NCBI GenBank assembly: GCA_964448285.1
Contig: CAYUWG010000008.1
Location: 18,645-82,644, forward strand
Source: an uncultured Chromatiales bacterium
GTDB taxonomy: Bacteria; Bacteroidota; Ignavibacteria; SZUA-365
DNA: 64,000 nt
Direction of reading: 5' to 3'
Positions 10,155-46,200 of the stretch are shown here, piece after piece (position 1 is the stretch's first letter; each line of letters opens with the position of its first letter). Below the pieces are notes generated by a model. That model did no database searches, had not been told where the DNA came from, and worked only from the letters and a program-made list of their open reading frames with translations. The translations under genes and the position numbers were made by a program.

Positions 10155-10201
10155 ACGGAAGGAATTTCTTCGTAGGCTTGAACCTCACGAGATAAGGTCG
10201 C
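10155..10201 (+). repeat. 47-bp direct repeat, copy A (remnant of a paralogous gene 3' end)
   Basis: acggaaggaatttcttcgtaggcttgaaCctcacgagaTaaggtcgc lies immediately upstream of the OMP gene start. It is near-identical to the last 47 nt of that gene (copy B). In frame it reads ...GRNFFVGLNLTR-stop. Confidence 0.8.
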
Positions 10202-10202
10202 A

Positions 10203-12656
10203 ATGAATGAAATGAGACTCTGCAAAAGAACTCACAAAATGAAACTGCTGCTGAGCATAATCGCGCTTCCTTTCATTATATCTGTCGCCCAGTCGCAGTA
10301 TTTGATTCGTGGCTTCGTACTCAGTTCGGACAACTCACAGCCCATACACTATGCAAACGTTCTACTGCTCGGGACCAACAGAGGTACAGTGACAAGCGCT
10401 GATGGGACCTTCCGAATCACGGTTGACACACTGCCTGTAATGATTAAAGTATCGTGTATCGGGTATAAGAGCAGCATCGTACGAGTGGATGGCTTGTACA
10501 CAATGAGAATTGAATTGAAACCGGAGGTTTACAAATTCGATGAAGTGACAGTCTCGCCCGACGATAGTCTTGCTCGTTGGATTGTTACAAAAGCTATTGA
10601 GGCTAAGCGAATACGAAATGCAATGCTCCACAGCTATAAAGTCGTTTCTCACTCGAAGTTGCGATTTCGTGTGGGTGCTCTCAATGGCGTAGATCATGAG
10701 GTACAAGAAGAGATACGCAAAACTATGAATGAAATTGTCGAAACGAGAACCACGGCATTTTGGATAAGTCCGGATAAGCACAAAGAAATCATTGAGGGAA
10801 GAAGACAAACGGATGTCTTTGGGACTAGTAAATTACGTTTAAACAGTATCACTGCACGGACAGACCTGTCGGCTGAGAAAATATTGATTGGTATTCTGGA
10901 GGGAGTTGGTCCGATATCGGAGCAAGGATTGGAAGCATATTACTACAGTTATTTAGGTATGACAGTCATCGATTCCACCGCTGTGCATAAAATCCGTGTT
11001 GTGCCTCGCTCACCGATAACACGAGGAGTATTCGGGTCGTTGTTCATATCGGATTCAACCTATTTACTCGTAAGTGCTGATGTGAGTCTTAGTGATGCAA
11101 TGATACTTCCACTTGGTGCCCAATGGTCAGTGGGAGTAAAACAACAGCATCGTCTCGTCGATAGTGTATTTTGGTTGCCTTCAGCAATGGTGATGTCAAT
11201 CAGGGTCACAGCGCGTATTATGGGCGCATATTTGGAAGTATTGGCATCATTATCCGCTGTTATGGAAGACTACCAGGTTAACGTGGATGGAATAGAGAAG
11301 GAGTTCGATGGCTATGGTATCGTCGTTTCAGATGACGCTGATGTGAAGGATGAGAGTTATTGGGACAAGCAATCGTTGATGGCGCTCACGAGTGATGAAA
11401 TTGAAGCATACAGCTATGACGACAGTATGCGTGTTGTGAAGGAGCATGAGAGTAAGACCTTCTTCCTGGAGGATGCTATAGGTGGGAAGACGATGTCGGT
11501 AAGCGGAATCGAGTATGATGTTCCCGGCATCTTCAATCTCTGGCATTATAACCGTGTCGAAGGTGCCTCCGTTGGTCTGCCCTTTTCGCTGTATTCGGAT
11601 ACTGGCAGAATAAGGAGCTTTCATCTCTCCGGATTCTATGGGTTTGCAGACAGGAAATTCAAGGTGCGCTCCGGAATGGAATTACGTCTTTCTAAGAAAT
11701 ACGGACATCTCCTTGAACTGAAGGCTTACGACGATGTATGGGAGTTGGATAGGGATCGGCAAATACGGTTTTCAACCGATACCCTGATCACGAGCTTCAC
11801 GAGTTTGCTCTATGCAGCAGAGCGGGATGACTACTATTACAGGAAGGGAGGTTCGATGACGTACAGCGGCTACACCCTTCCCTTTCTTCATCTCTCGCTC
11901 GATGGAAGATATGAGAAACATGAAAGCGCTTATAAGAATACTGATTGGAGTTTGTTCAACGAGAACAAGAAATTCCAATCCAATCCTGAAATAACGGCGG
12001 GAGAGTATTATTCCGTCGGCATGACGATGAAGCCGGATTTCAGGCCTTTAGCGTACAACGCCGGTATCATCGAACGGCTGGGAATACAAACCGTTCGATC
12101 ATCCCTATCGCTTCAATACACAAAGGGAGCGCTCGCCGATCGCACGATTGACTTCACGAAGTTCGTTGCGGACATATCCGGTGAAGAGTATTTCGGTCTC
12201 TTTGGCGTGACGAGGTGGTCGCTTTCGGGCGGTTACAGCAATAAGCCCTTACCGTTTCAGCACGTGTTCACAGTTCCCGGTTGCATCACGGGTTTGAGTG
12301 AAGAGCATCGCTTCAGGACGTTACAGTTTCGTGAGCTTGGCGGCGATGCGTTAGCCACAGCATATATCGAGCACACGATCGGCGTGCGGCCCTTCGCGGC
12401 CTTCAGAAATGTCCGCTTCATCGAGACATCCATGTGGGAGTTCGTTCTTTTTGGCGGCGCTGCGTGGTCGTCAATGCGGCAGGGAACGAGGAGCTTTCTC
12501 ACAGAGGAAATGTCGGTTGCAAAAAAGCCGTTCTTCGAGGTGGGTATCGGTTTGAAAGGATTGATGGGTGTGTTCCGCGTCGATTTTGCCTGGCGGCTGA
12601 ATCACTTCAACGGTAACGGAAGGAATTTCTTCGTAGGCTTGAATCTCACGAGATGA
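10203..12656 (+). CDS. CarboxypepD_reg-like domain plus DUF5686-like outer membrane protein
   Basis: The N-terminus after the signal peptide (IRGFVLSSDNSQPIHYANVLLLGTNRGTVTSADGTFRI) matches the carboxypeptidase regulatory-like beta-sandwich. The long remainder is OMP-like. This architecture is typical of FCB-group DUF5686 proteins. Confidence 0.5.
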   Translation: MNEMRLCKRTHKMKLLLSIIALPFIISVAQSQYLIRGFVLSSDNSQPIHYANVLLLGTNRGTVTSADGTFRITVDTLPVMIKVSCIGYKSSIVRVDGLYTMRIELKPEVYKFDEVTVSPDDSLARWIVTKAIEAKRIRNAMLHSYKVVSHSKLRFRVGALNGVDHEVQEEIRKTMNEIVETRTTAFWISPDKHKEIIEGRRQTDVFGTSKLRLNSITARTDLSAEKILIGILEGVGPISEQGLEAYYYSYLGMTVIDSTAVHKIRVVPRSPITRGVFGSLFISDSTYLLVSADVSLSDAMILPLGAQWSVGVKQQHRLVDSVFWLPSAMVMSIRVTARIMGAYLEVLASLSAVMEDYQVNVDGIEKEFDGYGIVVSDDADVKDESYWDKQSLMALTSDEIEAYSYDDSMRVVKEHESKTFFLEDAIGGKTMSVSGIEYDVPGIFNLWHYNRVEGASVGLPFSLYSDTGRIRSFHLSGFYGFADRKFKVRSGMELRLSKKYGHLLELKAYDDVWELDRDRQIRFSTDTLITSFTSLLYAAERDDYYYRKGGSMTYSGYTLPFLHLSLDGRYEKHESAYKNTDWSLFNENKKFQSNPEITAGEYYSVGMTMKPDFRPLAYNAGIIERLGIQTVRSSLSLQYTKGALADRTIDFTKFVADISGEEYFGLFGVTRWSLSGGYSNKPLPFQHVFTVPGCITGLSEEHRFRTLQFRELGGDALATAYIEHTIGVRPFAAFRNVRFIETSMWEFVLFGGAAWSSMRQGTRSFLTEEMSVAKKPFFEVGIGLKGLMGVFRVDFAWRLNHFNGNGRNFFVGLNLTR

Positions 12657-12662
12657 GGTCGC
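12616..12662 (+). repeat. 47-bp direct repeat, copy B (3' end of OMP gene)
   Basis: Matches 10155..10201 with two mismatches. Confidence 0.8.
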
Positions 12663-30723: not shown

Positions 30724-32394
30724 ATGTCAGACAATAAAATCATCTTCTCCATGATCGGCGTTGGCAAAGTCGTCCCGCCGAACCGATACATCCTCAAGGA
30801 CATCTACCTCTCGTTTTTCTACGGCGCGAAGATCGGCGTACTCGGTCTCAACGGCGCTGGGAAATCCACGCTGCTGAAGATCATCGCGGGGCTTGACCGC
30901 GACATCCTCGGCGAGATCACATCGGACAAAGGAATCACGTTCGGCTATCTGCCACAGGAGCCGGAGCTTGATCCAGGCAAGACCGTCCGCGAAGTGATCG
31001 AAGAGGGCGTGCAGGACGTCGTGAACGTCGTGAAGGAGTACGAAGCGGTGAACGCGGCCTTTGCAGAACCGGACGCGGACTTCGACGCACTGCTCGAGCG
31101 ACAAGCGAAACTGCAAGAACGGATCGACCATCTCGACGCATGGGATCTCGACAGCAAACTCGAAATGGCAGCCGATGCTTTGCGCTGCCCGTCGGGAGAA
31201 ACACCGGTGAATGTGCTTTCAGGCGGGGAGCGGCGTCGCGTCGCACTGTGCCGTCTGCTCTTGCAAAAGCCCGACGTGCTTCTCATAGACGAACCGACCA
31301 ACCATTTAGACGCGGAGTCCGTCGCGTGGTTAGAACAGCATCTTGCGAAGTACGAAGGCACCGTCATTGCCGTCACGCACGACCGCTACTTCCTCGACAA
31401 CGTCGCGGGATGGATTCTCGAACTCGACCGGGGCGAAAGGATTCCGTTCAAGGGCAACTACACTTCGTGGCTTGAACAGAAGCAGGAGCGCTTGCGCGTC
31501 GAAGAGAAGCAGGAGTCGAAACGGCAACGCATTCTCGCGCGCGAGTTGGAATGGGTGCGCATGAATCCCAAAGGCCGTCACGACAAGAGCAAAGCGCGCA
31601 TCGCGGCGTACGAAAAGCTTCTCACCGAAGAACAGGAGAAGCGCAACGAGGAGATGGAGATCTTCATTCCCGCAGGACCGCGACTCGGCGACGTCGTGAT
31701 CGAAGCGAAGGGCGTCTCGAAAGCGTTCGGGGACAGATTGCTGTTCGAGGGTTTGGACTTCTCGCTCCCACCCGGCGGCATCGTCGGCGTGATCGGTCCG
31801 AACGGCGCGGGTAAGACGACGCTCTTCCGCATGATCACGGGACAGGAACGTGCGGACGCGGGGACGTTCAAGATTGGCGAGACGGTGGCGCTCGGCTACA
31901 TCGACCAGAACAGACCGCTCGATGGGGAGAAGACGATCTATCAGGAAATCTCCGGCGGCGACGATCTCATTCGCGTGGGAAGCCGCGAGGTGAATGCGCG
32001 CAGCTACGTGGCGCGGTTCAACTTCAGCGGCAGCGACCAGCAGAAACAGGTGGGGCTGCTCTCCGGCGGCGAGCGCAACCGCGTCCATCTCGCGAAGATG
32101 TTGAAGGAGGGTCCGAACGTCCTCCTCCTCGACTAACCGACGAACGACCTCGACGTGAACACGCTCCGCGCGTTGGAAGAGGCGCTACTCAACTTCGCCG
32201 GATGCGCCGTGGTGATCTCGCACGACCGCTAGTTCCTCGACCGCATCGCGACGCACATACTCGCCTTCGAAGGCGACAGCCAGGTGCGCTGGTTCGACGG
32301 CAACTACGCGATGTATGAGAAAGACCGCAAGCAACGGTTGGGCATCGAAGCGGACAGGCCACACAGGATTAAGTACCGGGCGATGACGAGGTGA
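30724..32394 (+). pseudogene. ettA: ABC-F translational throttle EttA with two in-frame stop codons
   Basis: Two ABC cassettes are present (GLNGAGKST ... LSGGERRRVAL ... LLIDEPTNHLD; GPNGAGKTT ... [11 protein letters not shown]). The second Walker B reads LLLD-TAA-PTNDLD, with TAA at 32134-32136 where Glu is expected. HDR-TAG-FLDR has TAG at 32230-32232 where Trp is expected. The frame continues to the TGA at 32392-32394 with a canonical EttA C-terminus. Confidence 0.75.
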
Positions 32395-32536
32395 GAGGGA
32401 TAGAGTTGGCTCACTTTGAAATTATGCTGATAGCATTAACCCATCAGCATGAGTCGATAATGAAGACGAATTCCTTGAAATTATACGTTGCAATTCTCTT
32501 TAGCAGCGTGCATTTTTCCAATAAGGAGATGACCCA

Positions 32537-32743
32537 ATGAAATTCACAATAACCATATATCGCGATGAAGACGGCATGTTTATCGCCGAATGTCCTTCAA
32601 TTCCCGGTTGCATCAGCCAAGGAAGGACTGAGGAAGAGGCACAGTTGAACATTCAAGATGCCATCAAAGAAGCCCTTGAAGCTCGAGCTGAGTTGGGTAT
32701 GCCCCTTACGATTGCGACCAAACAAATCGATGTTGCAGTGTAG
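32537..32743 (+). CDS. hicB: HicB-family antitoxin
   Basis: MKFTITIYRDEDGMFIAECPSIPGCISQGRTEEEAQLNIQDAIKEALE (UPF0150/HicB fold). Its TAG stop overlaps the hicA ATG. Confidence 0.7.
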   Translation: MKFTITIYRDEDGMFIAECPSIPGCISQGRTEEEAQLNIQDAIKEALEARAELGMPLTIATKQIDVAV

Positions 32744-32971
32744 ATGCCGCCAGTTCCTCTTTTGCGCCCCTCGGAGGTCATCAAGATATTCGAGAAACTC
32801 GGATGGAGAGTAGTGCGCCAACGAGGCAGTCACATCATTCTCACCAAGACCGGACAGATTGCAACTCTGTCGGTTCCAAATCATGAACAGATCGCGCGTG
32901 GCACCCTACGCGGCTTGATCTCAAAAGCCGGATTGACCATCGAACAATTCCTCGAAGCATCTGGTCACTAA
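32744..32971 (+). CDS. hicA: HicA-family mRNA interferase toxin
   Basis: [26 protein letters not shown]....[23 protein letters not shown] is the canonical HicA/YcfA motif set. Confidence 0.75.
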
Positions 32972-33004
32972 CCTCTCGCCGTATTTACCCGCGCACCCGA
33001 AGCA

Positions 33005-33393
33005 ACGTGGCGCGGTTCAACTTCAGCGGGAGCGACCAGCAGAAACAGGTGGGGCTGCTCTCCGGCGGCGAGCGCAACCGCGTCCATCTCGCGAAGATGT
33101 TGAAGGAGGGTCCGAACGTCCTCCTCCTCGACTAACCGACGAACGACCTCGACGTGAACACGCTCCGCGCGTTGGAAGAGGCGCTACTCAACTTCGCCGG
33201 ATGCGCCGTGGTGATCTCGCACGACCGCTAGTTCCTCGACCGCATCGCGACGCACATACTCGCCTTCGAAGGCGACAGCCAGGTGCGCTGGTTCGACGGC
33301 AACTACGCGATGTACGAAAAGGACCGCAAGCAACGGTTGGGCATCGAAGCGGACCGGCCGCACAGGATTAAGTATCGGGCGATGACGAGGTGA
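33005..33393 (+). repeat. 389-bp perfect direct duplicate of the ettA 3' end (copy E2)
   Basis: Near-identical to 32006..32394. It carries the same TAA and TAG and ends at the same TGA. Confidence 0.9.
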
Positions 33394-33521
33394 TAAGTAT
33401 CTAACGGCTATGCGTTTCAGCGGCGCCGACGATCACCTACCGGCGGAGGTACCCCAGGCACCTGCGGCGTCCGCTGGAAAAGCTTGTTAGATTTTGCGGC
33501 ACACCTATCCTGTATTTGCCA

Positions 33522-34148: not shown

Positions 34149-34254
34149 GCCTACATAAATCTAACGCTCAGCATCAGAGGCGGCGCCCACCGCCGTCCGC
34201 TGCATGCTGTTGTTAGCCGGAAGATGCCGGTCAGTGTTATCGGGAATCTTTGGT

Positions 34255-36409: not shown

Positions 36410-37185
36410 CGGTTGCTGTGGTCCTTGGAGGCACGCCATGCAAGGTCATTGACAACCCACGAGGCGTACGAGCGTGGCAAGCGCGCGGTGGAAGCGCCCC
36501 ATTCCCTGATTCCATCTTGCCCGGGAGATAGTACTCCGATCCCGAGTCGTTGCGCGTCTCGGACCTGCTCCTCGGAAACGCGGGGCACGAGGACGTAGGA
36601 CTTCGATGCGAACCAGGTGTTCAGCCGTGCTTGGTTCAGCACGTCTGCCCACTTCCCGATTTTCGCCTCAACAGCGATAATCTTGGTCGCCGCGAAGGTG
36701 CGTTCGAAGGCGCACGGGAACCAGGCACGTCCGGCGGGTCGAACGAGCCCGGCACCGTGCAACCGTTCAATCGAGTATCGGGCGAAACGGGATCCGAAGC
36801 AGTCCTCAAGTTCTGAGTGGGCGGCTCTACGACGCTGGAAGACGTATTGCATGAGCCGCAGGTCGTCCGGTACGAGATCCATGCGCGATTCGTCCCAGTT
36901 GGCGGTGCGGGCGTCGCGCCACACCACGATGACGAGATCAGGGAACCCGGACTCTAGGCCGGGCTCGCGGAGCACCGTCACACGGCTATCCGGGGCATGC
37001 ACAAGCGGCATTGCGAAGATGAAACCATCCACGAGTTCCTGCTCTGGACCCCGCAAGGTGCGACGGAAGACGATGCCCTTCGGCGCCGAGTCGCGGTCAA
37101 CGATCGTTGGTCTCATGGTGGAGTGCACGTTGGTGATTCCCTCCCGTTCAATCACGCGTACTCGGTCCCTTCGTCCGGCCAACAA
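36406..37185 (-). CDS. hypothetical protein with possible PD-(D/E)xK-like signature (first gene of kinase operon)
   Basis: GFPDLVIVVW ... KIIAVEAKIGKW resembles the D / ExK strands of the restriction-endonuclease fold, with an unusually long spacer. The annotated start uses TTG; the first ATG is 23 codons downstream. Confidence 0.35.
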   Translation of the reverse strand: MLAGRRDRVRVIEREGITNVHSTMRPTIVDRDSAPKGIVFRRTLRGPEQELVDGFIFAMPLVHAPDSRVTVLREPGLESGFPDLVIVVWRDARTANWDESRMDLVPDDLRLMQYVFQRRRAAHSELEDCFGSRFARYSIERLHGAGLVRPAGRAWFPCAFERTFAATKIIAVEAKIGKWADVLNQARLNTWFASKSYVLVPRVSEEQVRDAQRLGIGVLSPGQDGIREWGASTARLPRSYASWVVNDLAWRASKDHSNR

Positions 37186-37600
37186 TAATTAGGCTGATCC
37201 GCATAAACCGCCGGTTTCTCATTTTCTTTCCGCATAAGACTCCATAGAATTATTTGTTCTTCGTCGCATCATGCCTCGACCGTTCGATGTATGTAATGTC
37301 GGGTTTGCAATTCATCATACATTTGCATCATCAGCTTGGGTCGTTTCGCTTGGGTCGTCATGTTGCTATTGTTGTCGCAAGATTACTTGGCACAACGATA
37401 GGAAATCAAAGCCTCAAAGTCAAGAAATGCGGGAAAATACTTTCTACTCCTTCATCTCGCACATACTTGCCTTCGAAGGAGACAGTCAGGTGCGCTGGTT
37501 CGACGGCAACTACGCGATGTACGAAAAGGACCGCAAGCAACGGTTGGGCATCGAAGCGGACAGGTCGCATCGGATCAAGCACAAGGCGATGATTGATAAC
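37181..37600 (+). repeat. composite repeat R1: 74-bp R-left element + IntI N-terminal remnant (30 codons, minus strand) + attI-like spacer with direct repeats + ettA 3' copy
   Basis: The minus strand reads [30 protein letters not shown]-stop and matches the start of the IntI-like ORF at 41880. The spacer carries TTGTCGCAAgattacTTGGCACAA. Then comes ettA-like coding ([42 protein letters not shown]) including GTTGGGC. Confidence 0.8.
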
Positions 37601-37622
37601 CGGGTTCGTTGTGTTGTACTGG

Positions 37623-38732
37623 TTAAACGCCATGGTCTTTCTCCGGCTCTGCGTATGTATCCGGTTGTTTCGGTAGTGCTGCGATCGCGGCGGCGATTTC
37701 CCGGAGATCGTTAACCAACGAACGAACGACAACATCTTTTTCCTCTCCAACTGGGACCTCCAACGAGATGGCAAAATCGTGATCGCTGGCTACGGTAAGG
37801 ATGCCTTTTTTAGTTACCCACGATTCAATCAGCGGGCGCACTTCCTGTCCCCGGCCGAAATCATCATCAGCGAAGACAAGCCAGAGAGGTGTTGTTCCAT
37901 GTGTCTTCCAGAGACCAAAGTGAATCCCGAACCATGCGCCTGCGCTACCTGAGCTTTGAGTCCCCATCACTCTCACATAACGCCCAATTCGCTCCCACGA
38001 CGCTTGCGGACGAAGTCCGCTGATGAGGAGAACCTTCTCGGTTACTCCAAGATCTGTTGTTGCCTGAATGATTGCGCCAAGTTGAAGAACAAAAGCTGAT
38101 GTGCGTTGATCTGTGATCTCGACTCGCGAAACTGGAGCGAAGGCATCTGAGTCTGCCGTGTCACAGAGAGCACGTAATTGGATGAGGTCTCCAATGGTGG
38201 TTGGAGCGCTGATGCACTCGTACTCCAATACGGACAGGACATTCTCCCAAGATGTGAGCGCCAGAATAGGACCAAGTTGTGTATCTGCTGAACGTGCTAT
38301 AGCGACAGCAGCAACACGCTCGGTTGCGGGGATTCCCTCGACTTCAAGTCTCCTGCGCAATTCCCGCCACAGAGTCTGTTCACGTGCGGCCGGACCGACG
38401 ACGAGAAGAACCGTTGGCTGCTGGTACGTTGCAAGTTGCTTCAGGTACGAAACCGGTTGCTTGTCTGTCAGCCCCGCCCAGAACTTGTTCTCCACGAAAA
38501 CGCGTGGTTGATTGTCGGAGAATCCCCACAGATCCGGACGAATCGTTCCTTCGGTTTGCTGAGTCTTGAATCGCAACGACGGGAGTTCTGGGGCAACGCC
38601 TCGAAGAAGCTTCATTATACCTCCTCGAGCGGCTTCGCTCGATTCGAGAATGTATGCAAGCGCATCGGTCGCTACGTCTTCATTCACATTGGAAAACCGC
38701 TTCTGGATGATATGGCTGAGTACAGTCTGCAT
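37623..38732 (-). CDS. hypothetical protein with PD-(D/E)xK nuclease motif
   Basis: [23 protein letters not shown] gives D, then 12 aa, then ExK with hydrophobic strands, the classic restriction-endonuclease-fold core. Confidence 0.4.
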
Positions 38733-38741
38733 CTAATCGAG

Positions 38742-38939
38742 TTAATCATGCTCCTCAACGCCATACGCGTTTGCCAAACTCTTTTGGGACAACTCCAACC
38801 AGGCATTCTGTTCTTCGTCAGACTGCTCAGGAAAAACGATCACGAGAAGCCGAGAGTGTGGTTCTATTTTGAAGGGTTCATCCAACCGTATCTGCTCACC
38901 ATCGAAATGGGCCGCTAATGCTACTGTTTTCATTGACAT
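38742..38939 (-). CDS. small antitoxin-like protein (65 aa)
   Basis: Short acidic-C-terminal protein (EQSDEEQNAWLELSQKSLANAYGVEE) lying 9 nt upstream of the PD-(D/E)xK gene. Its size and composition resemble small type II antitoxins. The family is not identified. Confidence 0.3.
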   Translation of the reverse strand: MSMKTVALAAHFDGEQIRLDEPFKIEPHSRLLVIVFPEQSDEEQNAWLELSQKSLANAYGVEEHD

Positions 38940-39003
38940 TTTCTCCTTAGGTGATAGTATCTATCTGTCTAATGAATTCCAGACCAACTCGCTGGCATAA
39001 TAG

Positions 39004-39216
39004 TCAGGCTGCAACCTGAATGTAGGACGAGTACGCCGATGGTTCAGGGGCGTCGTAACCCTCCATTCGCAAGCCTTCGAGATGAAATTCGATGGCTTCC
39101 TGAATATTTCGTTCGACTTCCTCTTTCGTTCTACCGGTAGAGCCACAACCCGGCACGTCCGGAGAAAATGCAGAGTAACCCGTACGTGTCTTTTCAACGA
39201 CGATAAGAAATTTTTT
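39004..39216 (-). CDS. HicB-like antitoxin (orphan)
   Basis: MKKFLIVVEKTRTGYSAFSPDVPGCGSTGRTKEEVERNIQEAIEFHLEGL is a UPF0150/HicB fold. No HicA partner is adjacent. Confidence 0.6.
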   Translation of the reverse strand, partial: KKFLIVVEKTRTGYSAFSPDVPGCGSTGRTKEEVERNIQEAIEFHLEGLRMEGYDAPEPSAYSSYIQVAA

Positions 39217-39278
39217 CATGGTTTCAATCCAGCTTGTTTGAGGATGTTCTGAGAACACGTCAGACCATTGTGATACGT

Positions 39279-39872
39279 TCAAGCTGCTTCAGCGTGCAGT
39301 CTCAAACCAAGAGCCCCAATCACCTTGAGGATGGTATCGAAATCAGGAGTACGTTCACCGGACAATGCCTTATAGAGACTTTCGCGTGAAAGACCAGCGT
39401 CACGCGCAACCTGTGCCATGCCACGTGCACGGGCAATATCTCCAAGCGCCTTTGCGATAAATGCGGCATCACCATTGGCTTCTTCCAGACATGCTTCTAA
39501 GTAAGCCGCCATTTCCTCAGGCGTTCGGAGATGTTCGGCGACATCATATCGAGTGGTTTTGGTTTTTCTCATCATGGGCTCCAACAAGTTTCGCGCGAGG
39601 CTACGAGCTGTCTTGATGTCGGTGGCTTGGGTACTTTTATCACCGCCTGCCAGCAGAATTACCATCTCGCGTCCGCGCTTTGTGAAATAAACCCGATAAC
39701 CGGGACCGTAATCGATCCGCAACTCGGAGACGCCATCACCAACTGGTTTGACATCTCCAGCATTTCCTGCCGCCAAGCGCTCAACTCTGGATAGGACACG
39801 CGCTCGTGCCTGAATGTCGCTCAGTCCATCGAGCCACTGCACGAAATTCTCTGTTTTGCGAATCTCAATCAC
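39279..39872 (-). CDS. in-frame fusion of RelE/Gp49-like addiction-module killer and HTH antidote
   Basis: Residues 1-100 (MIEIRKTENFVQWLDGL...GPGYRVYFTKRGREMVILLAGGDKSTQ) match the putative addiction-module killer family. Residues 105-197 (MMRKTKTTRYDVAEHLRTPEEMAAYLEA...GLSRESLYKAL) match the cognate antidote family. The junction is cccATGATGAga. Confidence 0.6.
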   Translation of the reverse strand: MIEIRKTENFVQWLDGLSDIQARARVLSRVERLAAGNAGDVKPVGDGVSELRIDYGPGYRVYFTKRGREMVILLAGGDKSTQATDIKTARSLARNLLEPMMRKTKTTRYDVAEHLRTPEEMAAYLEACLEEANGDAAFIAKALGDIARARGMAQVARDAGLSRESLYKALSGERTPDFDTILKVIGALGLRLHAEAA

Positions 39873-39937
39873 GGAAGGAATGTAGCCTAACGGCTACACA
39901 TTGTCAAATGATTATTCTACGCTCAGAGACTACTTGG

Positions 39938-40051
39938 GTCGCCCGCTGGCTCGACGGCAACTACTCCTATGTACGAGAAAGACCGTAAGCAGCGCTTAGG
40001 CATCGAACCGGACGGCCGCTCAGGATTAAGAATCGGGCGATGACGAAGTGA
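39938..40051 (+). repeat. diverged ettA 3'-end copy E3
   Basis: Encodes RWLDGNYSYVRERP?KQRLGIEPDGRSGLRIGR-stop; ends at TGA 40049-40051. It is the most diverged copy. Confidence 0.6.
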
Positions 40052-40247
40052 CAAGCTTCTAACTGCCCTGCGTGTAAGCCGCGCCGGTATGATATTTTGA
40101 TTGAATGCGAGATCTTAGTTGAGTCGACTTAACACGCGGGTTAGGCGTCTCATCTCGCCATAAGATTTTCATGCCAAACCCGCGATCGTCGGCTATTCGA
40201 AGTCTTAGCGCCTACGTCCCGTATGTAAGGTCTAATCACTGCCGATG

Positions 40248-41351
40248 TCATCGTTTTTCACTTCCTGAATGTATTTCCAATAGACTCTTTCTATGAAGAA
40301 TACCAAAGCGTTGCCAAGCATATATATAGTCTCCAACAACTTCTATTCTAGCAATCTCATCAACTTGAATACCTGAGTCCGATTCTGTTCCAACTGGAAT
40401 CCAGCTTTTGCCGCTGTTTGTTGAAACAAATACTCCAATATTGGTGCCACAGAATATGTAAATTCCGAATGTCGCAATCGAGCTTACAAACGCAACCCTG
40501 TCGGATAATCCTATAGAACATCTAACCCAACTCTCTCCATTGTCGGAAGATATGTATAATCCATCATTGGTTCCAGCAAAAAGCACGTTTCCCAATGCAG
40601 CCAGTGAATTAATCATCCGGTTATATAGTCCGGAATTAACTCCAATCCAGTTTTTTCCACCATCCCTGGATAAGAATATCCCATTGTCCGCTCCGACAAA
40701 TATAAGATTTTCGCACCTAAGGACAGTGTTGACTCTACTGCTATACTCCTTCAATGTGCCAAATCCTTCGTCACCAGAAAAGAATACAACGCGTTTCTCG
40801 TCCCATCTTTTAATATCATCTTTTACCGCCATATACAATCTTCCTTCATATGTGACAGCATATATTTCATTATTGAATACATATATGTGCCGTATACCGC
40901 TTTTGGAGAGCACGCTATCTGGAGATATATTGGATGGAGTAGTTCGTTCTCGCTCTGAGGACATATTTACGCTGATCGAATAACTGATAGCTTGCCACCA
41001 GTTCCATCCCCTGTCTAAAGAGATAAACAGACCCTTCTGTGTTCCGCAAATCAAAATCGAATCTATCGTGATAAACCGTGTAATACCTACATTGGTAGGT
41101 AATTTTCCGCCGTATTTCCATTCTGAAAGAAAACCTGGTTGGCTTGGAATTGAGGGTGCGCCATTTTCATTCGCAGCGAATATTCCATGAGAATGAGCAA
41201 CCACCAACAACCTACCGGATTGCCGAATATCAACGATAGGCCCACCCCGTGCCATAGTCAACTGCCATTGCGAAATTGCTTTCGAATATGGTGCAGTGAA
41301 TACGATTGCGGCAATTATAACTGCTGGTTTTACTGCTAATCTACAATACAT
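40248..41351 (-). CDS. secreted BNR-repeat beta-propeller protein
   Basis: Signal peptide, then BNR motifs [32 protein letters not shown]. The gene is AT-rich (about 40 % GC) and its start overlaps the intI remnant's stop. Confidence 0.55.
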
Positions 41352-41880
41352 AGTGCGGTAAATTCTGATTTATTAATTCAATCGGGCTTCGTGCTGCCGA
41401 ATGCCCCCTGTTAAGTACATGGGTGTAAATCATCGTGGTTTTAATATCGCGGTGGCCTAAAAGCTCTTGGACAGTCCGAATGTCATAACCGCTTTCGAGC
41501 AAGTGTGTCGCGAACGAATGCCGGAACGTGTGACAGGTTACCCTCTTCGTCATGCCTGCTTTCATTGCGGCGATCCGCGCGCGAATGAGTTCGCACAGAT
41601 CACCGACCGCTAGTCCGATAACGTTGCGATACAAAAAGAGTAGAGCAGAGAGAGCTTGATTCTGTGTCGAAGCGCTTACTTTTTCCTCAACAGCAAGATG
41701 TGTCAGAAAAGCATTGATCTCAGGTTCCGACATCTCTTGCGGATGGCGCACATCATTGAAATGAACGTAGCGTTTCACCAAAAAGCAGTACACCTCCTCC
41801 GTACGATGGCTGTAATGTCGAACCTGCAATGCTTCATGCATTTGCATCATCAGCTTTGGTCGCTTCGCTTGGGTCGTCAT
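41341..41880 (-). pseudogene. intI: integron-type tyrosine recombinase (IntI-like) with a large internal deletion
   Basis: The N-terminal 100 aa ([15 protein letters not shown]...[31 protein letters not shown]) match the IntI core-binding domain. The ORF then joins directly to box II / C-terminus [43 protein letters not shown]. The catalytic Arg/Lys/His patch region is missing. Total length is 179 aa versus about 320 expected. Confidence 0.7.
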
Positions 41881-42085
41881 ATTGCTATTGTTGTCGCAAG
41901 ATTACTTGGCGCAACGATAGGGAATCAAAGAGTCAATGTCAAGAAATACCCGAAAAAACTTTCTTACTCACTTCATCTCGCACTTTCTCGCCTTCGAAGG
42001 CGACAGTCAGGTGCGCTGGTTCATCGGCAACTACGCGATGTATGAGAAAGACCGCAAGCAGCGTTTAGGCATCGAAGCGGACCGT
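41881..42085 (+). promoter_or_regulatory. attI-like region of R2: direct repeats TTGTCGCAA-6 nt-TTGGCGCAA, then ettA 3' arm to the GTT core
   Basis: It lies immediately upstream of, and divergent from, the IntI-like start. Two 9-bp direct repeats sit about 20 bp from the ATG. The ettA-like arm ([35 protein letters not shown]) ends shortly after GTTTAGG. Copies of the same layout occur in R1, R3 and R4. Confidence 0.5.
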
Positions 42086-42122
42086 CGGGTTCGCCCTGCT
42101 TTAAGTCGGCACGGCGCGGTCG

Positions 42123-42742
42123 CTATTCACGGGGCCACTTCCGGAGCGCTGCTTCAAAGCAGACATTGAGGAACTGCTCCACGATATCGATCACTGCAAC
42201 GACGAGCTTTGAATCAGCGAGTAGGGCGTCCACGACAACTGGACCCAAGGCTTTCCGCCGAATGAACGACTGGACCGCTCCTTTACCAGCGAAGTCAGCG
42301 AGTTGACCGCCGTTGTGAACAAGGCAGTTACGAACCTCAACAACACCCCGGACATCTTCGAGCAACTTTGACGGAAGGGCCAGGTCCATCCGGGCGACCT
42401 TCTGAGCATAGACAAGGAAGCGATCGAGCCACGAACCCCGCAGCTCGCGGAGGGACAGCTGTAGGTTCTCGGCATCACGAAGGCTCTGCGCGAAGTCTCT
42501 GAGATCTCGCTCAAGGAGACCAACTGTGACGACAATCACCGAGCTGTAGAGAATGCTGGGAAACGGCTCCTCGTAGAGGTAGGAATCCTCGTTCCCGAAG
42601 GCATCGTGCTTCCCAACCAAGCGCGTCGCTGATTCCGCGAGGAACTCCTCGACCGTGGTCAGATAGGCGCGAAGCTCATCAACGTGGATCAAGGCATCAA
42701 CGGAGCAGCCGAAGAACTGAAGACCGGGTCCGATGCTAGCCA
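42123..42742 (-). CDS. Abi_2 (AbiD/AbiF)-like HEPN-domain protein
   Basis: Rx4H motif EVRNCLVHNGG near the C-terminus in a predicted helical protein. The likely start is MASIGPGLQ at 42742. Confidence 0.4.
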
Positions 42743-43503
42743 TGTCCTCTCTTGTGTCGCCTAACGTTGTGCCGCTCAGCCGCGAGCGGCGGCCCATTGC
42801 TTCCGCACTCGCCCGGCGCCCGCCCGCCGCTCGTCTGCTGCAGCGGCGTGTTATGCTTCCTCTCGGCTTTCTCACCAGCTCTCTCGACGATCTTTAGGAT
42901 ATCGCTGGCGACAACGATTCTTTCGAACGCCGACAGAAAGTCCATGTCGACATCCCGGTGCGAACAGGGATTCTTGTAGTAGCCGAATGCGCCAGCGACG
43001 TATTGACACAGAGCCTCCCTTTCGGCCTTTGGAAGCGCCGGGTCGGTCAAGGGCCCGTTCTCAGGGTGGAAGGCCCTGCGGATTAGAGTCACGCCAATTT
43101 CGTCGGCACTGGACTTGGTCCACTTCCTGATCCCAGTCTCTACCGCCTTAAAGGCCTTGAGGACGGCACTTTCGTAATCGCCCGAATTCAACATGTGAAG
43201 GGAAACCTTGGCTATTCGAGGATGGATGTACATCTCCGGTACGAGTACGTAATCCCGAACAACGCTCCTAAACTCGCGCTCAAGGAACCTGAACCCGACC
43301 TTCGTTGGGTAAAAGGTTTCGTCGCCTTCGTCATCGTACCCACGTTGGTATTGACGTATATCTATGTGAGTCTCTGGACTAGCTTTGTACTTGACGCGCG
43401 AAAAGCGAACCGGCCGATATCCCCCGGCGTTCGCCTCGGCAATGACGTGCTGATACTCGATCTTTGCTTCGACTGCGCTCTTGTCCTTTGTCTTCCTCTT
43501 CAT
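42736..43503 (-). CDS. TIGR02391/Hypoth_Ymh-like HEPN-related protein
   Basis: The C-terminal 130 aa show AFKAVETGIRK ... LIRRAF ... YVAGAFGYYKNPCSHRD ... FLSAFERIVVASDILKIV. This matches the conserved FxAVE...RNPxAH-type blocks of that family. The likely start is ATG 43503 (MKRKTKDK). Confidence 0.45.
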   Translation of the reverse strand: MKRKTKDKSAVEAKIEYQHVIAEANAGGYRPVRFSRVKYKASPETHIDIRQYQRGYDDEGDETFYPTKVGFRFLEREFRSVVRDYVLVPEMYIHPRIAKVSLHMLNSGDYESAVLKAFKAVETGIRKWTKSSADEIGVTLIRRAFHPENGPLTDPALPKAEREALCQYVAGAFGYYKNPCSHRDVDMDFLSAFERIVVASDILKIVERAGEKAERKHNTPLQQTSGGRAPGECGSNGPPLAAERHNVRRHKRGHG

Positions 43504-43528
43504 CGCCCATTCTCTCCGCGGTAGGCCC

Positions 43529-43602
43529 AACAATAATTAGGCTGATCCGCATAAACCGCCGGTTTCTCGTTTTCTGTCCGCATAAGACTCCATAGAATTA
43601 TT
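43529..43602 (+). repeat. solo copy of 74-bp R-left element
   Basis: aacAATAATTaggctgatCCGCATAAaccgccggtttctcgttttctgtCCGCATAAgactccatagAATTATT has a 7-bp terminal inverted repeat and an internal direct repeat. It abuts the start of the Ymh-like gene. Confidence 0.7.
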
Positions 43603-43682
43603 CTACATAGTTGTCATGACCGGCAGCAAAAAGAGGCGCGAGGTAGGCGCGACGCTTTTTGCTGTCCGTGTTGATGGCGCTG

Positions 43683-44006
43683 TTAACGTGCATTTGCGCC
43701 CAACATCGTTTGAAATGGTGCGGAGGGAAGGAATCGAACCTTCCGCGTTCTCTCTTGGAAGGAATGTATTTGCTCACACAACCATCTCTCGCTTGGGTTG
43801 GAGTTTTTTTCCACCAGGCTCCGCAGGAACGCAGCTCCGCACCAAACACATGCCACGACAAAATGAAGTATGGCGTTTGAGTTTTTCATGATTACCTCCT
43901 TCGCAGTTTCAATGAAGCTGTTTACGGAATGGTAGATGTCCAACCCAAACGAGATTTCGATGTGTGCCTCAATACAAACCTCTTTACCCAAGCTCGTGTG
44001 ATTCAT
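43683..44006 (-). CDS. hypothetical small protein between two R-left copies
   Basis: 107-aa ORF with an internal hydrophobic segment (MKNSNAILHFVVACVWCGAAFL). Coding status is uncertain. Confidence 0.25.
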   Translation of the reverse strand: MNHTSLGKEVCIEAHIEISFGLDIYHSVNSFIETAKEVIMKNSNAILHFVVACVWCGAAFLRSLVEKNSNPSERWLCEQIHSFQERTRKVRFLPSAPFQTMLGANAR

Positions 44007-44026
44007 GGTTGCTGCACGCTAACAAT

Positions 44027-44384
44027 AATTAGGCTGATCCGCATAAACCGCCGGTTTCTCATTTTCAGTCCGCATAAGACTCCATAGAATTATTTGTTCT
44101 TCTTGGCATCATGCCTCGACCGTTCGATGTATGTAATGTCGGGTTTGCAATTCATCATACATTTGCATCATCAGCTTTGGTCGTTTCGTTTGGGTCGTCA
44201 TGTTGCTATTGTCGTCGCAAGATTACTTGGCGCAACGATAGGGAATCAAAGAGTCAATGTCAAGAAATACCCGAAAAAACTTTCTTACTCACTTCATCTC
44301 GCACATACTCGCCTTCGAAGGCGACAGTCAGGTGCGCTGGTTTGACGGCAACTACGCGATGTATGAGAAAGACCGCAAGCAACG
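44027..44384 (+). repeat. composite repeat R3 (R-left + IntI 5' remnant + attI-like spacer + ettA arm truncated exactly at the GTT core)
   Basis: Same layout as R1. The ettA-like sequence ...gaccgcaagcaacG stops at 44384 and is followed by unrelated sequence (actagtccgtg) where the other copies have GTTGGGC. Confidence 0.8.
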
Positions 44385-44429
44385 ACTAGTCCGTGCCAGG
44401 TGCTGCGGTTTTTATCCGGGTGCTCAACT

Positions 44430-44792
44430 TCATTTATCCGGGATGCGTTCAGAGATGCGAATGCGGCCGGGTTGGACAACGATAAAGCAGCCCTCAATCA
44501 TCGTACGATGTGTATCAATAAATTCCACGACGGTTCGAACCATGGCTCTCCGGGCTTTGGCCGGAAATCGGATGAAAATGACGCCAGATGATTTGGCAAC
44601 GCTGGCAAAAACCAGTTGTCCAAAGTCTTTATCTTCAGTCAAAAGAATACGGGATTCCGCGAGGGTAAGCTCAATGATCGCGTCATCGGTCGCTCCAGGT
44701 CTTTCGTCGCAGACCGCAACGACATCGTGACCCATGGTACGTAATGCATGTACAAGGGAGAAATCGCAGTTCTCATCCGCAAGGAAACGCAT
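44430..44792 (-). CDS. DUF5615 PIN-like toxin-family protein
   Basis: [30 protein letters not shown]...[14 protein letters not shown] matches the [11 protein letters not shown]5615 consensus. Confidence 0.6.
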
Positions 44793-45044: not shown

Positions 45045-45154
45045 TGTCTTACCTCCTGTTTCGAGTATAGTTTAACCAATCACTTCAACAGAACAAAAAG
45101 AGAGGGTGTGCGGATAGTCGTTATTGTCCCGTGGTGAACATGCAGGTGTAACAG

Positions 45155-45273
45155 ATAGTCAGGTGCGCTGGTTCGACGGCAACTACGCCATGTATGAGAA
45201 AGACCGAAAGCTGCGCTTAGGCATCGAAGCGAACATTCCGTATCCGATCAGGTATCGCGCGATGTCAAGTTGA
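45155..45273 (+). repeat. diverged ettA 3'-end copy E4
   Basis: Encodes [38 protein letters not shown]-stop. Confidence 0.65.
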
Positions 45274-46044: not shown

Positions 46045-46200
46045 CAGGTTTCCGTACATCGTGATTGATCGTCCATAGACAATTGGTTCGTGTATTCGTA
46101 TCATCAGTTTCTGTCTTTTCGTTTGCGTTGTCATGCTGCTATTGTTGTCGCAAGATTGCTTGTCGCAACGCCAAGGAAACCGAAGATTCAGTGTCAAAGG
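46045..46200 (+). repeat. R4: degenerate IntI 5' remnant plus direct repeats TTGTCGCAA-6 nt-TTGTCGCAA
   Basis: The minus strand reads MTTQTKRQKLMIRIHEPIVYGRSITMYGNL..., matching the IntI N-terminus. The spacer carries two perfect 9-bp direct repeats. No ettA arm follows. Confidence 0.6.

Follow-up and report, generated by a model that had tools for sequence, protein, structure and literature searches.

Between the gene ettA, which encodes an ABC-F translation factor, and position about 46200 of the DNA analyzed here (a stretch of 64,000 nucleotides of contig CAYUWG010000008.1, assembly GCA_964448285.1, from an uncultured Chromatiales bacterium; hereafter, the window), at least seven units are stacked head to tail. 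Read on the minus strand, a unit comprises a promoter/leader spacer, the gene of an integron integrase (intI), the integration site attI, cassettes each carrying an attC site and, finally, a copy of the 3' end of ettA (copies A to G, listed below). That the integrase is a dead IntI, that the integron is of the "inverted" orientation and that the units are built in this way are, taken together, conclusions held with good confidence. As for the origin of the stack, whole units may have been added or exchanged by homologous recombination, an explanation to which the sequence comparisons lead us to give roughly an even chance.

The integrase is represented in its longest form by an open reading frame (ORF) of 179 residues:

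41341-41880, minus strand: internally deleted intI (179 amino acids), whose natural stop has been lost, with a 10-residue extension

Its identity was examined with Pfam, NCBIfam, the solved structures and a profile built from 96 full-length relatives. In Pfam, Phage_int_SAM_4 (the N-terminal SAM-like domain) is found at residues 10-90, and Phage_integrase is matched in its final third only (ORF residues 104-156, equivalent to positions 117-169 of the 172 of the profile). TIGR02249 (integron integrase) is the top NCBIfam model, with 214.1 bits distributed over two stretches vs. 94 for XerD and 89 for XerC, although the score falls short of the curated cut-off of the model (265 bits). The best solved structure is IntI4 from Vibrio cholerae (2A3V, VchIntIA; 151 bits), followed by XerA and XerD with 69 and 51 bits; residues 10-90 of the ORF correspond to residues 5-85 of 2A3V and residues 101-168 to 251-318, and VchIntIA residues about 86-250 have no counterpart. 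The profile of the relatives (about 314 positions) gives the same picture, matching the ORF at 1-93 and 248-312 with positions 94-247 missing: the deletion is in frame, and about 154 central residues are gone. The lost segment includes the IntI-specific insertion (the LPxALxRKYPxAxxxWxWQWVFP block in our alignment of relatives, A1) and, as we assume from what is known of VchIntIA, the first catalytic arginine and the catalytic lysine, whereas the catalytic H, R, H and Y are kept (HTFRHSF, GH and IYTHV). The 179-residue protein is an IntI remnant and not a member of the family in working order. An initial annotation of this DNA had assigned the ORF to IntI rather than XerC/XerD, had described the central catalytic region as cleanly deleted in frame and had predicted the absence of the IntI-specific additional domain, all of which these comparisons bear out. 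It had further regarded the array as fossilized or dependent on a recombinase acting in trans; with the profile of the relatives, no further integrase-like segment and no intact recombinase were detected in any frame of the 64 kb, so the locus is either a fossil or reliant on an enzyme in trans, as had been proposed.

The same deleted intI, together with its spacer and ettA copy, was recovered from another sample (contig L001) at 93% nucleotide identity and with different cassettes on both sides. The two intI copies differ by 7 synonymous and 9 non-synonymous changes (dN/dS, the ratio of non-synonymous to synonymous rates, of 0.37, from too few sites to separate constraint from decay). Besides this allele, about 16 of the best 120 database matches are IntI proteins of 157-247 amino acids that have lost the same central region in frame, with differing breakpoints (in A1, the short forms are P0003, P0005, P0006, P0009, P0011-P0013, P0030, P0041, P0048, P0068, P0074, P0092 and P0118). 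Two of the short forms were inspected on long contigs (loci L004/L005 and L006), and attI and cassettes adjoin both. This recurrent loss of the catalytic center among relatives may reflect decay seen through the bias of the search, or a short form that is retained.

Regarding the side of intI on which the array lies, the relatives at loci L002/L003, L004/L005, L006, L090 and L091 carry small cassette-type genes, many of them toxin-antitoxin genes, 3' of intI and on the same strand; at L006, core genes are situated directly upstream of intI and past the array. The minus strand carries 15 of the 17 array ORFs of the window. The R/L-box spacers of the sites attC a, c and d, read on that strand, measure 2 nt on the 5' side and 3-8 nt on the 3' side, and those of the relatives, whose attC sites are co-oriented with the genes, measure 4 and 7 nt, that is, with the same sense. 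The polarity of the candidate attI (D7, described below) also agrees with an inverted layout, in which intI, attC and cassettes share one strand and intI is transcribed toward attI; this "inverted integron-integrase" arrangement has already been published (PMC3607928, PMC4889954). Judged from these gene orders and sites, array and attI are placed on the 3' side of intI in this IntI clade. The attI-like architecture that the initial annotation had recognized upstream of intI is thus on the wrong side of the gene. A full-length intI with cassette-type toxin-antitoxin genes on either side, on the same strand, is found at two of these loci, L002/L003 and L091 (Prosthecochloris vibrioformis, GCA_006265245.1), and stacked or adjacent arrays might therefore also occur in relatives.

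The candidate attI is a repeat of 76 nt (D7), present in three copies:

37179-37254, minus strand: D7 copy of unit C, with two TTATGCGGA repeats, ending ...ATTATTG/TTGGCC at the cassette start
43527-43602, minus strand: D7 copy with no adjoining intI, ending ...ATTATTG/TTGGGC before a Ymh-family cassette gene (42736-43533)
44019-44094, minus strand: D7 copy of unit F, ending ...ATTATTG/TTAGCG

Six relatives share a conserved region 3' of the intI stop codon, with TTATGC-type repeats (a third TTATGC site is found near the intI stop) and an end reading ...TAAxxAxTG/TTRRRY, after which the sequences diverge. When the three window copies and the six relatives are aligned, conservation ends at G/TT in the nine sequences, with a different sequence beyond it in each. 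The motif TTATGCGGA occurs 7 times in the window vs. 0.43 expected, and six of the seven occurrences are the paired repeats of D7. Since conserved repeats end at a G/TT boundary with variable cassettes beyond, D7 is a concrete candidate for the attI of inverted-type integrons, with a putative crossover at ...ATTG/TTRRRY. As in attI1 of class 1 integrons, core-like direct repeats (TTATGCGGA, twice) precede a terminal G/TTRRRY crossover; unlike attI1, D7 is located downstream of intI, and the two sequences are unrelated. No D7-type site is present in unit E, where the next cassette gene (40248-41351) begins inside the extended intI ORF. On the other hand, the two complete copies between 43527 and 44094 flank a single small cassette (ORF 43683-44006 and hairpin 43611-43680); simple cassette insertion would not place an attI within an array, and the intervening platform (ettA copy, spacer and intI) has probably been deleted.

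The genes of the array are of HicB-like, Gp49/HI1420-type, DUF5615/DUF433, protein kinase and Ymh-family types, together with unknowns, nearly all on the minus strand. The hairpins associated with them, with the z-scores of their folding, and two gene features are:

33399-33492, minus strand: attC a, an ATCTAAC...GTTAGAT hairpin 5 nt past the stop codon of ettA copy B; z = -3.0
34159-34218, minus strand: attC d, a 60-nt hairpin, GGCTAAC...GTTAGAT on the minus strand; z = -3.2 and -4.2
37594-37670, minus strand: possible attC f, a weak hairpin, not significant; z about 0.4
40058-40147, minus strand: possible attC b, a weak hairpin sharing homology with attC a in the ettA-proximal arm; z = 0
42759-42856, minus strand: attC c, a 98-nt hairpin, GCATAAC...GTTAGGC, between two minus-strand cassette genes; z = -3.4
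43611-43680, minus strand: attC e, the hairpin of the small cassette 43603-44018; z = -3.9 and -5.2
40248-41351, minus strand: cassette gene (367 amino acids, BNR/Sortilin-like), starting inside the end of the extended intI ORF
32395-32997, plus strand: unit 1, with hicB (32538-32743) and hicA (32744-32971), between ettA copies A and B

The names hicB and hicA come from a reading of the translations, no family search having been made on those two ORFs. Four of the hairpins (attC a, c, d and e) are significantly stable (z from -3.0 to -5.2) and have TAAC...GTTA ends; small genes split by hairpins of this kind are read as integron cassettes with attC sites. The first automated attC scans were either too noisy or too strict, and Rfam and tRNA scans of the array gave no matches. 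The arms of attC a and b beside ettA (33355-33428 and 40013-40086) are homologous, at 84% including the ettA end; their partner arms are unrelated, and the registers of pairing differ. In a single minus-strand ORF of 197 residues (39279-39872), a Gp49/HigB-type toxin domain (residues 13-88) is followed by an HI1420-type antidote/helix-turn-helix domain (residues 106-194); this ORF is a fused toxin-antitoxin or the read-through of two genes.

Remains of the integron platform are found in five of the units, namely C, E, F, the lone attI at 43527 and H. Besides the deleted intI of unit E, they comprise:

37269-37361, minus strand: intI stub of unit C, 30 codons followed by a stop
37362-37456, minus strand: promoter/leader spacer C, carrying both 9-mers described below
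41881-41976, minus strand: promoter/leader spacer E, with a -35 box TTGACA (41937-41942) and a -10 box TATCGT (41914-41919)
44109-44201, minus strand: intI stub of unit F, 30 codons followed by a stop
44202-44297: spacer F
46084-46197, minus strand: intI stub of unit H (about 17 codons, 46084-46134) and spacer H, the most diverged (about 79%)

The first ~90 nt of intI and the ~95 nt of spacer recur four times (C, E, F and H). Of three further units said initially to keep the first 30 codons of the integrase, stubs C and F do so exactly, but stub H retains about 17. The junction between spacer and ettA falls at the same nucleotide in C, E, F and L001. Losses differ among units: in C and F, intI is missing from codon 31 to just before attI; in E, the catalytic center and attI are gone; one unit has been reduced to the lone attI at 43527; and units U3 and U6 lack the whole platform. 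A distance of 5-6 nt separates the outer core of an attC from the ettA stop codon in copies B and D, and about 40 nt past the stop are homologous in both, as would be expected if the original, empty platform had been oriented convergently to ettA and its attI crossover had been situated about 11 nt away from the stop codon. Unit E, with neither catalytic core nor attI, is incapable of activity; use of the attC sites and of the three intact attI copies would require an integrase supplied from elsewhere.

The units are delimited by the end of ettA, seven copies of which flank them as direct repeats of a kind that would restore the end of the gene:

30724-32394, plus strand: ettA, full length (782 and 779 bits with EttA models, residues 1-470)
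32252-32394, plus strand: copy A, the final 143 nt of ettA, which recur along the stack
32998-33393, plus strand: copy B, 396 nt, both in-frame stops included
37457-37592, plus strand: copy C
39944-40051, plus strand: copy D, 5'-truncated, with +1 and -1 indels
41977-42084, plus strand: copy E, 3'-truncated after ...GCGGACCG
44298-44384: copy F, truncated after ...CAACG
45154-45273, plus strand: copy G, 5'-truncated, reaching the stop codon

The full-length gene contains two in-frame stops, a TAA (32134-32136) at the expected Walker-B glutamate of the second ATPase domain (LLLD-stop-PTN) and a TAG (32221-32223) in the HDR-stop-FLD motif, both found again in copy B (33133-33135 and 33220-33222). 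As other long genes of the window are intact, a pseudogenized ettA is more plausible than an altered genetic code. The end duplication of 396 nt (31999-32394 and 32998-33393) has only hicBA between its copies. A and B are identical over 284 nt (32032-32315) and then show six synonymous differences over 32316-32376, which is a sharp mosaic boundary between two ettA alleles.

Several features of the copies bear the mark of selection at the protein level. Among their variable sites, 13 of 20 are at codon position 3 (p = 0.004), and the ratio of non-synonymous to synonymous divergence (pN/pS) is 0-0.26 in all pairs of window copies. Synonymous and non-synonymous differences amount to 10.5 vs. 4.5 for A-C, 13.5 vs. 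9.5 for A-G and 7 vs. 0 for C-F; by a binomial estimate of our own, the counts for A-C and for A-G reject a pN/pS of 0.5 at a level of about 1%. Copies decaying in place are expected to show a pN/pS near 1, or about 0.5 if one partner is functional. Synonymous divergence (pS) reaches 0.4-0.6 among the ettA copies, vs. 7-13% in the adjoining dead intI and spacer. The low pN/pS and this excess of pS over intI and spacer together indicate that the divergence mostly accrued in working ettA genes of separate lineages, which in turn argues for import or exchange of whole units and not for amplification alone. Variants at codons 10 and 22 occur among the copies in all four combinations. The variable breakpoints point to homologous recombination in the ettA arm rather than to a site-specific core. 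The ettA-like segment is thus not accidental, but a unit boundary with the signature of once-functional gene ends.

Directly upstream of intI, the two 9-bp repeats reported initially are indeed present in unit E (TTGTCGCAA at 41891-41899 and TTGGCGCAA at 41906-41914), and are kept when the other copies are aligned: they are conserved in all four intI-upstream copies and in L001, whereas the intI-upstream DNA of more distant relatives did not show them. The window contains 8 occurrences of the pattern TTGNCGCAA, where 2.8 are expected; a count of 8 was reached in none of 100 shuffles, and six of the eight occurrences are in the four intI-upstream copies. A promoter-like site, TTGACA-17-TATCGT, is found on the minus strand at 41942-41914, and the 9-mers sit between its -10 box and the intI ATG, one of them overlapping the -10. 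A natural guess is that they may be a putative operator or leader element. The second element of the initial annotation was a GTT core within the ettA-like arm: a motif is there, reading GGTTGGGC in copies A, B, C and L001, but in unit E it reads GTTTAGG (42063-42069, 183 nt from the ATG), and GTTTAGG or GCTTAGG in the other copies. GTTGGGC (at 32336 in copy A) corresponds to the ordinary ettA codons CGG TTG GGC (Arg-Leu-Gly), and in A, B, C, D and G the homology to ettA does not break off there but extends as far as the stop codon; no cassette boundary was found at GTTGGGC in the window copies. A 9-nt match of the spacer, ATCTCGCAC, to ettA 32215-32223 was considered as extended ettA homology and rejected as not significant (z about 2.4). 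A strict pattern of the intI-upstream DNA had no match in a genome collection or a metagenome collection, and a relaxed one had two metagenome matches, both due to chance. In the spacer, an ATG starts an ORF that continues in the reading frame of the ettA copy (41936-42169, 44257-44730 and 37271-37714), and in L001 length differences of 2 nt and 1 nt jointly preserve this frame. A conserved small protein from the ORF is nonetheless unlikely, because the C-terminal ends vary among copies; a protein search with the chimeric ORF returned only ORFs of the source contig itself and many short EttA C-terminal ORFs, three of which were checked and are frameshifted or contig-edge ettA, not displaced copies.

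These elements had been assembled into a model with an attI1-like site upstream of intI, in which the 9-mers bind IntI and a GTTRRRY core stands some 170-180 nt off, in an ettA-mimicking arm. The conservation of the 9-mers in the four copies and L001 speaks for it, as do the agreement of GTTGGGC with the GTTRRRY consensus, the end of the ettA homology of copy F within 1-2 nt of the motif, and the placement of the decay-type changes in copies E and L001, where a frameshift and non-conservative substitutions affect codons 1-16, which precede the motif. Nonetheless, the attI of the relatives, with its G/TT cassette boundary, is on the other side of intI, and the 9-mers, taken as repeats of the attI1 type, turn out to overlap the -10 box and leader of the intI promoter. 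The proposed crossover core does not behave as one either: it is a run of ettA codons that changes to GTTTAGG or GCTTAGG elsewhere, the homology passes through it in five copies, the A/B breakpoint, the only one that can be dated, is upstream of it, and the break of copy F reads CAACG/ACT, not CAACGG/TT. Lastly, the distance from repeats to core is 140-160 nt, far above that of attI1, which is about 55 bp. The upstream-attI model is largely refuted, and we regard it as very improbable.

Other explanations keep the ettA copies as boundaries and differ in how the units arrived. Tandem amplification in situ would require one illegitimate duplication of the last 143 nt of ettA with the integron, followed by unequal crossing-over, cassette turnover and decay, without import. 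It accounts well for the identity of all junctions, for the lack of an ettA copy at the spacer end of the rightmost unit, H, which a tandem duplication would lead one to expect, and for the A/B duplication with its common nonsense codons, which is clearly local; duplication of an intI pseudogene within a genome has also been reported (PMC2426708). We nevertheless find it rather unlikely as the whole story, since it predicts a pN/pS near 1 or 0.5 where 0-0.26 is observed, leaves the pS of 0.4-0.6 in ettA beside 7-13% in the adjoining dead intI and spacer, and does not foresee that spacer H lacks the 30 nt beside the junction. Insertion of a site-specific integrative element, that is, of a circularizable integron placed into the 3' end of ettA by IntI or an unseen recombinase, with replacement of the gene end, would explain why direct repeats of the target end flank every unit, why an integrase gene abuts each repeat, why the repeats are under purifying selection, as for gene-restoring arms, and why the same dead unit has other neighbors in the second sample (L001). 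However, the breakpoints vary within the repeat, which indicates a homologous and not a fixed-site exchange, the IntI of the relatives have ordinary arrays unlinked to ettA, the geometry of an attC by genome-site insertion would not rebuild ettA, and no other recombinase exists in the window; IntI is not known to insert whole integrons into the 3' end of a gene. This explanation is quite improbable. The related proposal that integron modules (platform and array) move with a portable ettA end of ~143 nt, which would direct them to that gene and replace its end on arrival, so that integrons pile up at a single chromosomal address, appears distinctly unlikely. Finally, strain variants of one hypervariable locus could have been concatenated by the assembler through common repeats: the contig is metagenome-assembled, its repeats are of an assembly-breaking kind, and the Logan contig L095 ends inside the spacer repeat. 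Yet the repeat copies are 7-21% apart and hence not collapsible, no shared k-mers exist that could create the junction between spacer and ettA, this junction is present in four diverged versions, one of them from a different sample and assembly (L001), and L095 reproduces 3.6 kb exactly (100% identity to 38335-41922, with copy D, the cassette and intI), so an artefact is barely credible.

We therefore return to homologous addition or exchange, in which recombination inside the ettA homology would have added or swapped whole units, each with an ettA 3' end; a RecA-type homologous crossover with DNA of related lineages would fit the data better than a fixed IntI core. Several observations weigh against this proposal or the unit structure that underlies it. 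The nonsense codons common to A and B imply that at least the A/B duplication occurred in situ and was not imported, and the origin of the first junction between spacer and ettA is left unexplained. In unit H, no ettA copy follows the spacer, which diverges ~30 nt before the shared junction, so the oldest boundary misfits a simple model unless a further deletion is admitted. All the statistics on selection were derived from stretches 36-48 codons long. Two of the hairpins, attC b and f, are not significantly stable, and the better-folding strand of each attC gives mixed signals. At none of 80 ettA loci of other species (67-80% identity) was an integron within 10 kb or a second ettA end found; the architecture is consequently without an independent example beyond L001. 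None of these 80 loci is syntenic with the flanks of the window, and an empty site is thus not definable.

Elsewhere in the window, a direct repeat of 47 nt (96%; 10155-10201 and 12616-12662) brackets a gene of lower GC content coding for 817 amino acids (10203-12656). The second copy is the 3' end of that gene itself, and the first is perhaps the end of a neighboring paralogue.

Compared with known systems, the IntI of the window is a close homologue of integron integrases from Bacteroidota, Chlorobi, Planctomycetes-type and Nitrospira metagenome-assembled genomes. It shares with the inverted integron-integrase group (Treponema denticola type; also reported in Chlorobi, Planctomycetes and others) the transcription of intI toward attI and cassettes, and the small, often toxin-antitoxin cassettes, each with an attC hairpin and RYYYAAC/GTTRRRY ends; unlike that group, the window has several stacked platforms with all integrases destroyed and ettA 3'-end copies between the units. 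It is common for IntI function to be lost while cassettes are kept; about one third of genomic intI genes are pseudogenes, multiple intI genes occur in more than 20% of lineages (PMC2426708), and cassette arrays without integrase (CALIN) with nearby intI remnants have been described (PMC4889954). Here also IntI function is lost and the cassettes are retained, but the loss of the catalytic center is clean and in frame, and the deleted allele persists at 93-94% in a second sample. On the other hand, as in genomic islands at gene 3' ends, the units are bounded by repeats of the target end, with an integrase remnant adjoining each, and the repeats are marked as functional gene ends. They differ from such islands in that the only integrase is that of an integron, the crossover points vary, the unit is an integron alone, and neither excision functions nor transfer genes are present. 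Our literature search found no stack of several platforms with copies of a neighboring gene's 3' end in between and, in titles and abstracts, no link of this kind between integrons and ettA. The dead integron integrase is in itself routine, and the stacked architecture is the unusual variant.

The corrected orientation changes the reading of the locus, as the cassettes are to be assigned to the DNA 3' of intI, and the D7-type site, shared by six relatives from several phyla, becomes a candidate attI for the poorly characterized inverted-type integrons. Integrons are regarded as immobile unless they are carried by a transposon or a plasmid. If IntI, or a dedicated site in the arm, had catalyzed the movement of modules, the integrons of this clade would be self-integrating elements and not passive platforms. 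Under the homologous addition or exchange that we favor, units bounded by gene ends under selection are a hint that whole chromosomal integrons can pass between lineages, and a short homology arm may let integrons be added at a fixed chromosomal address. If this were true generally, it would constitute a route of integron spread independent of the integrase.

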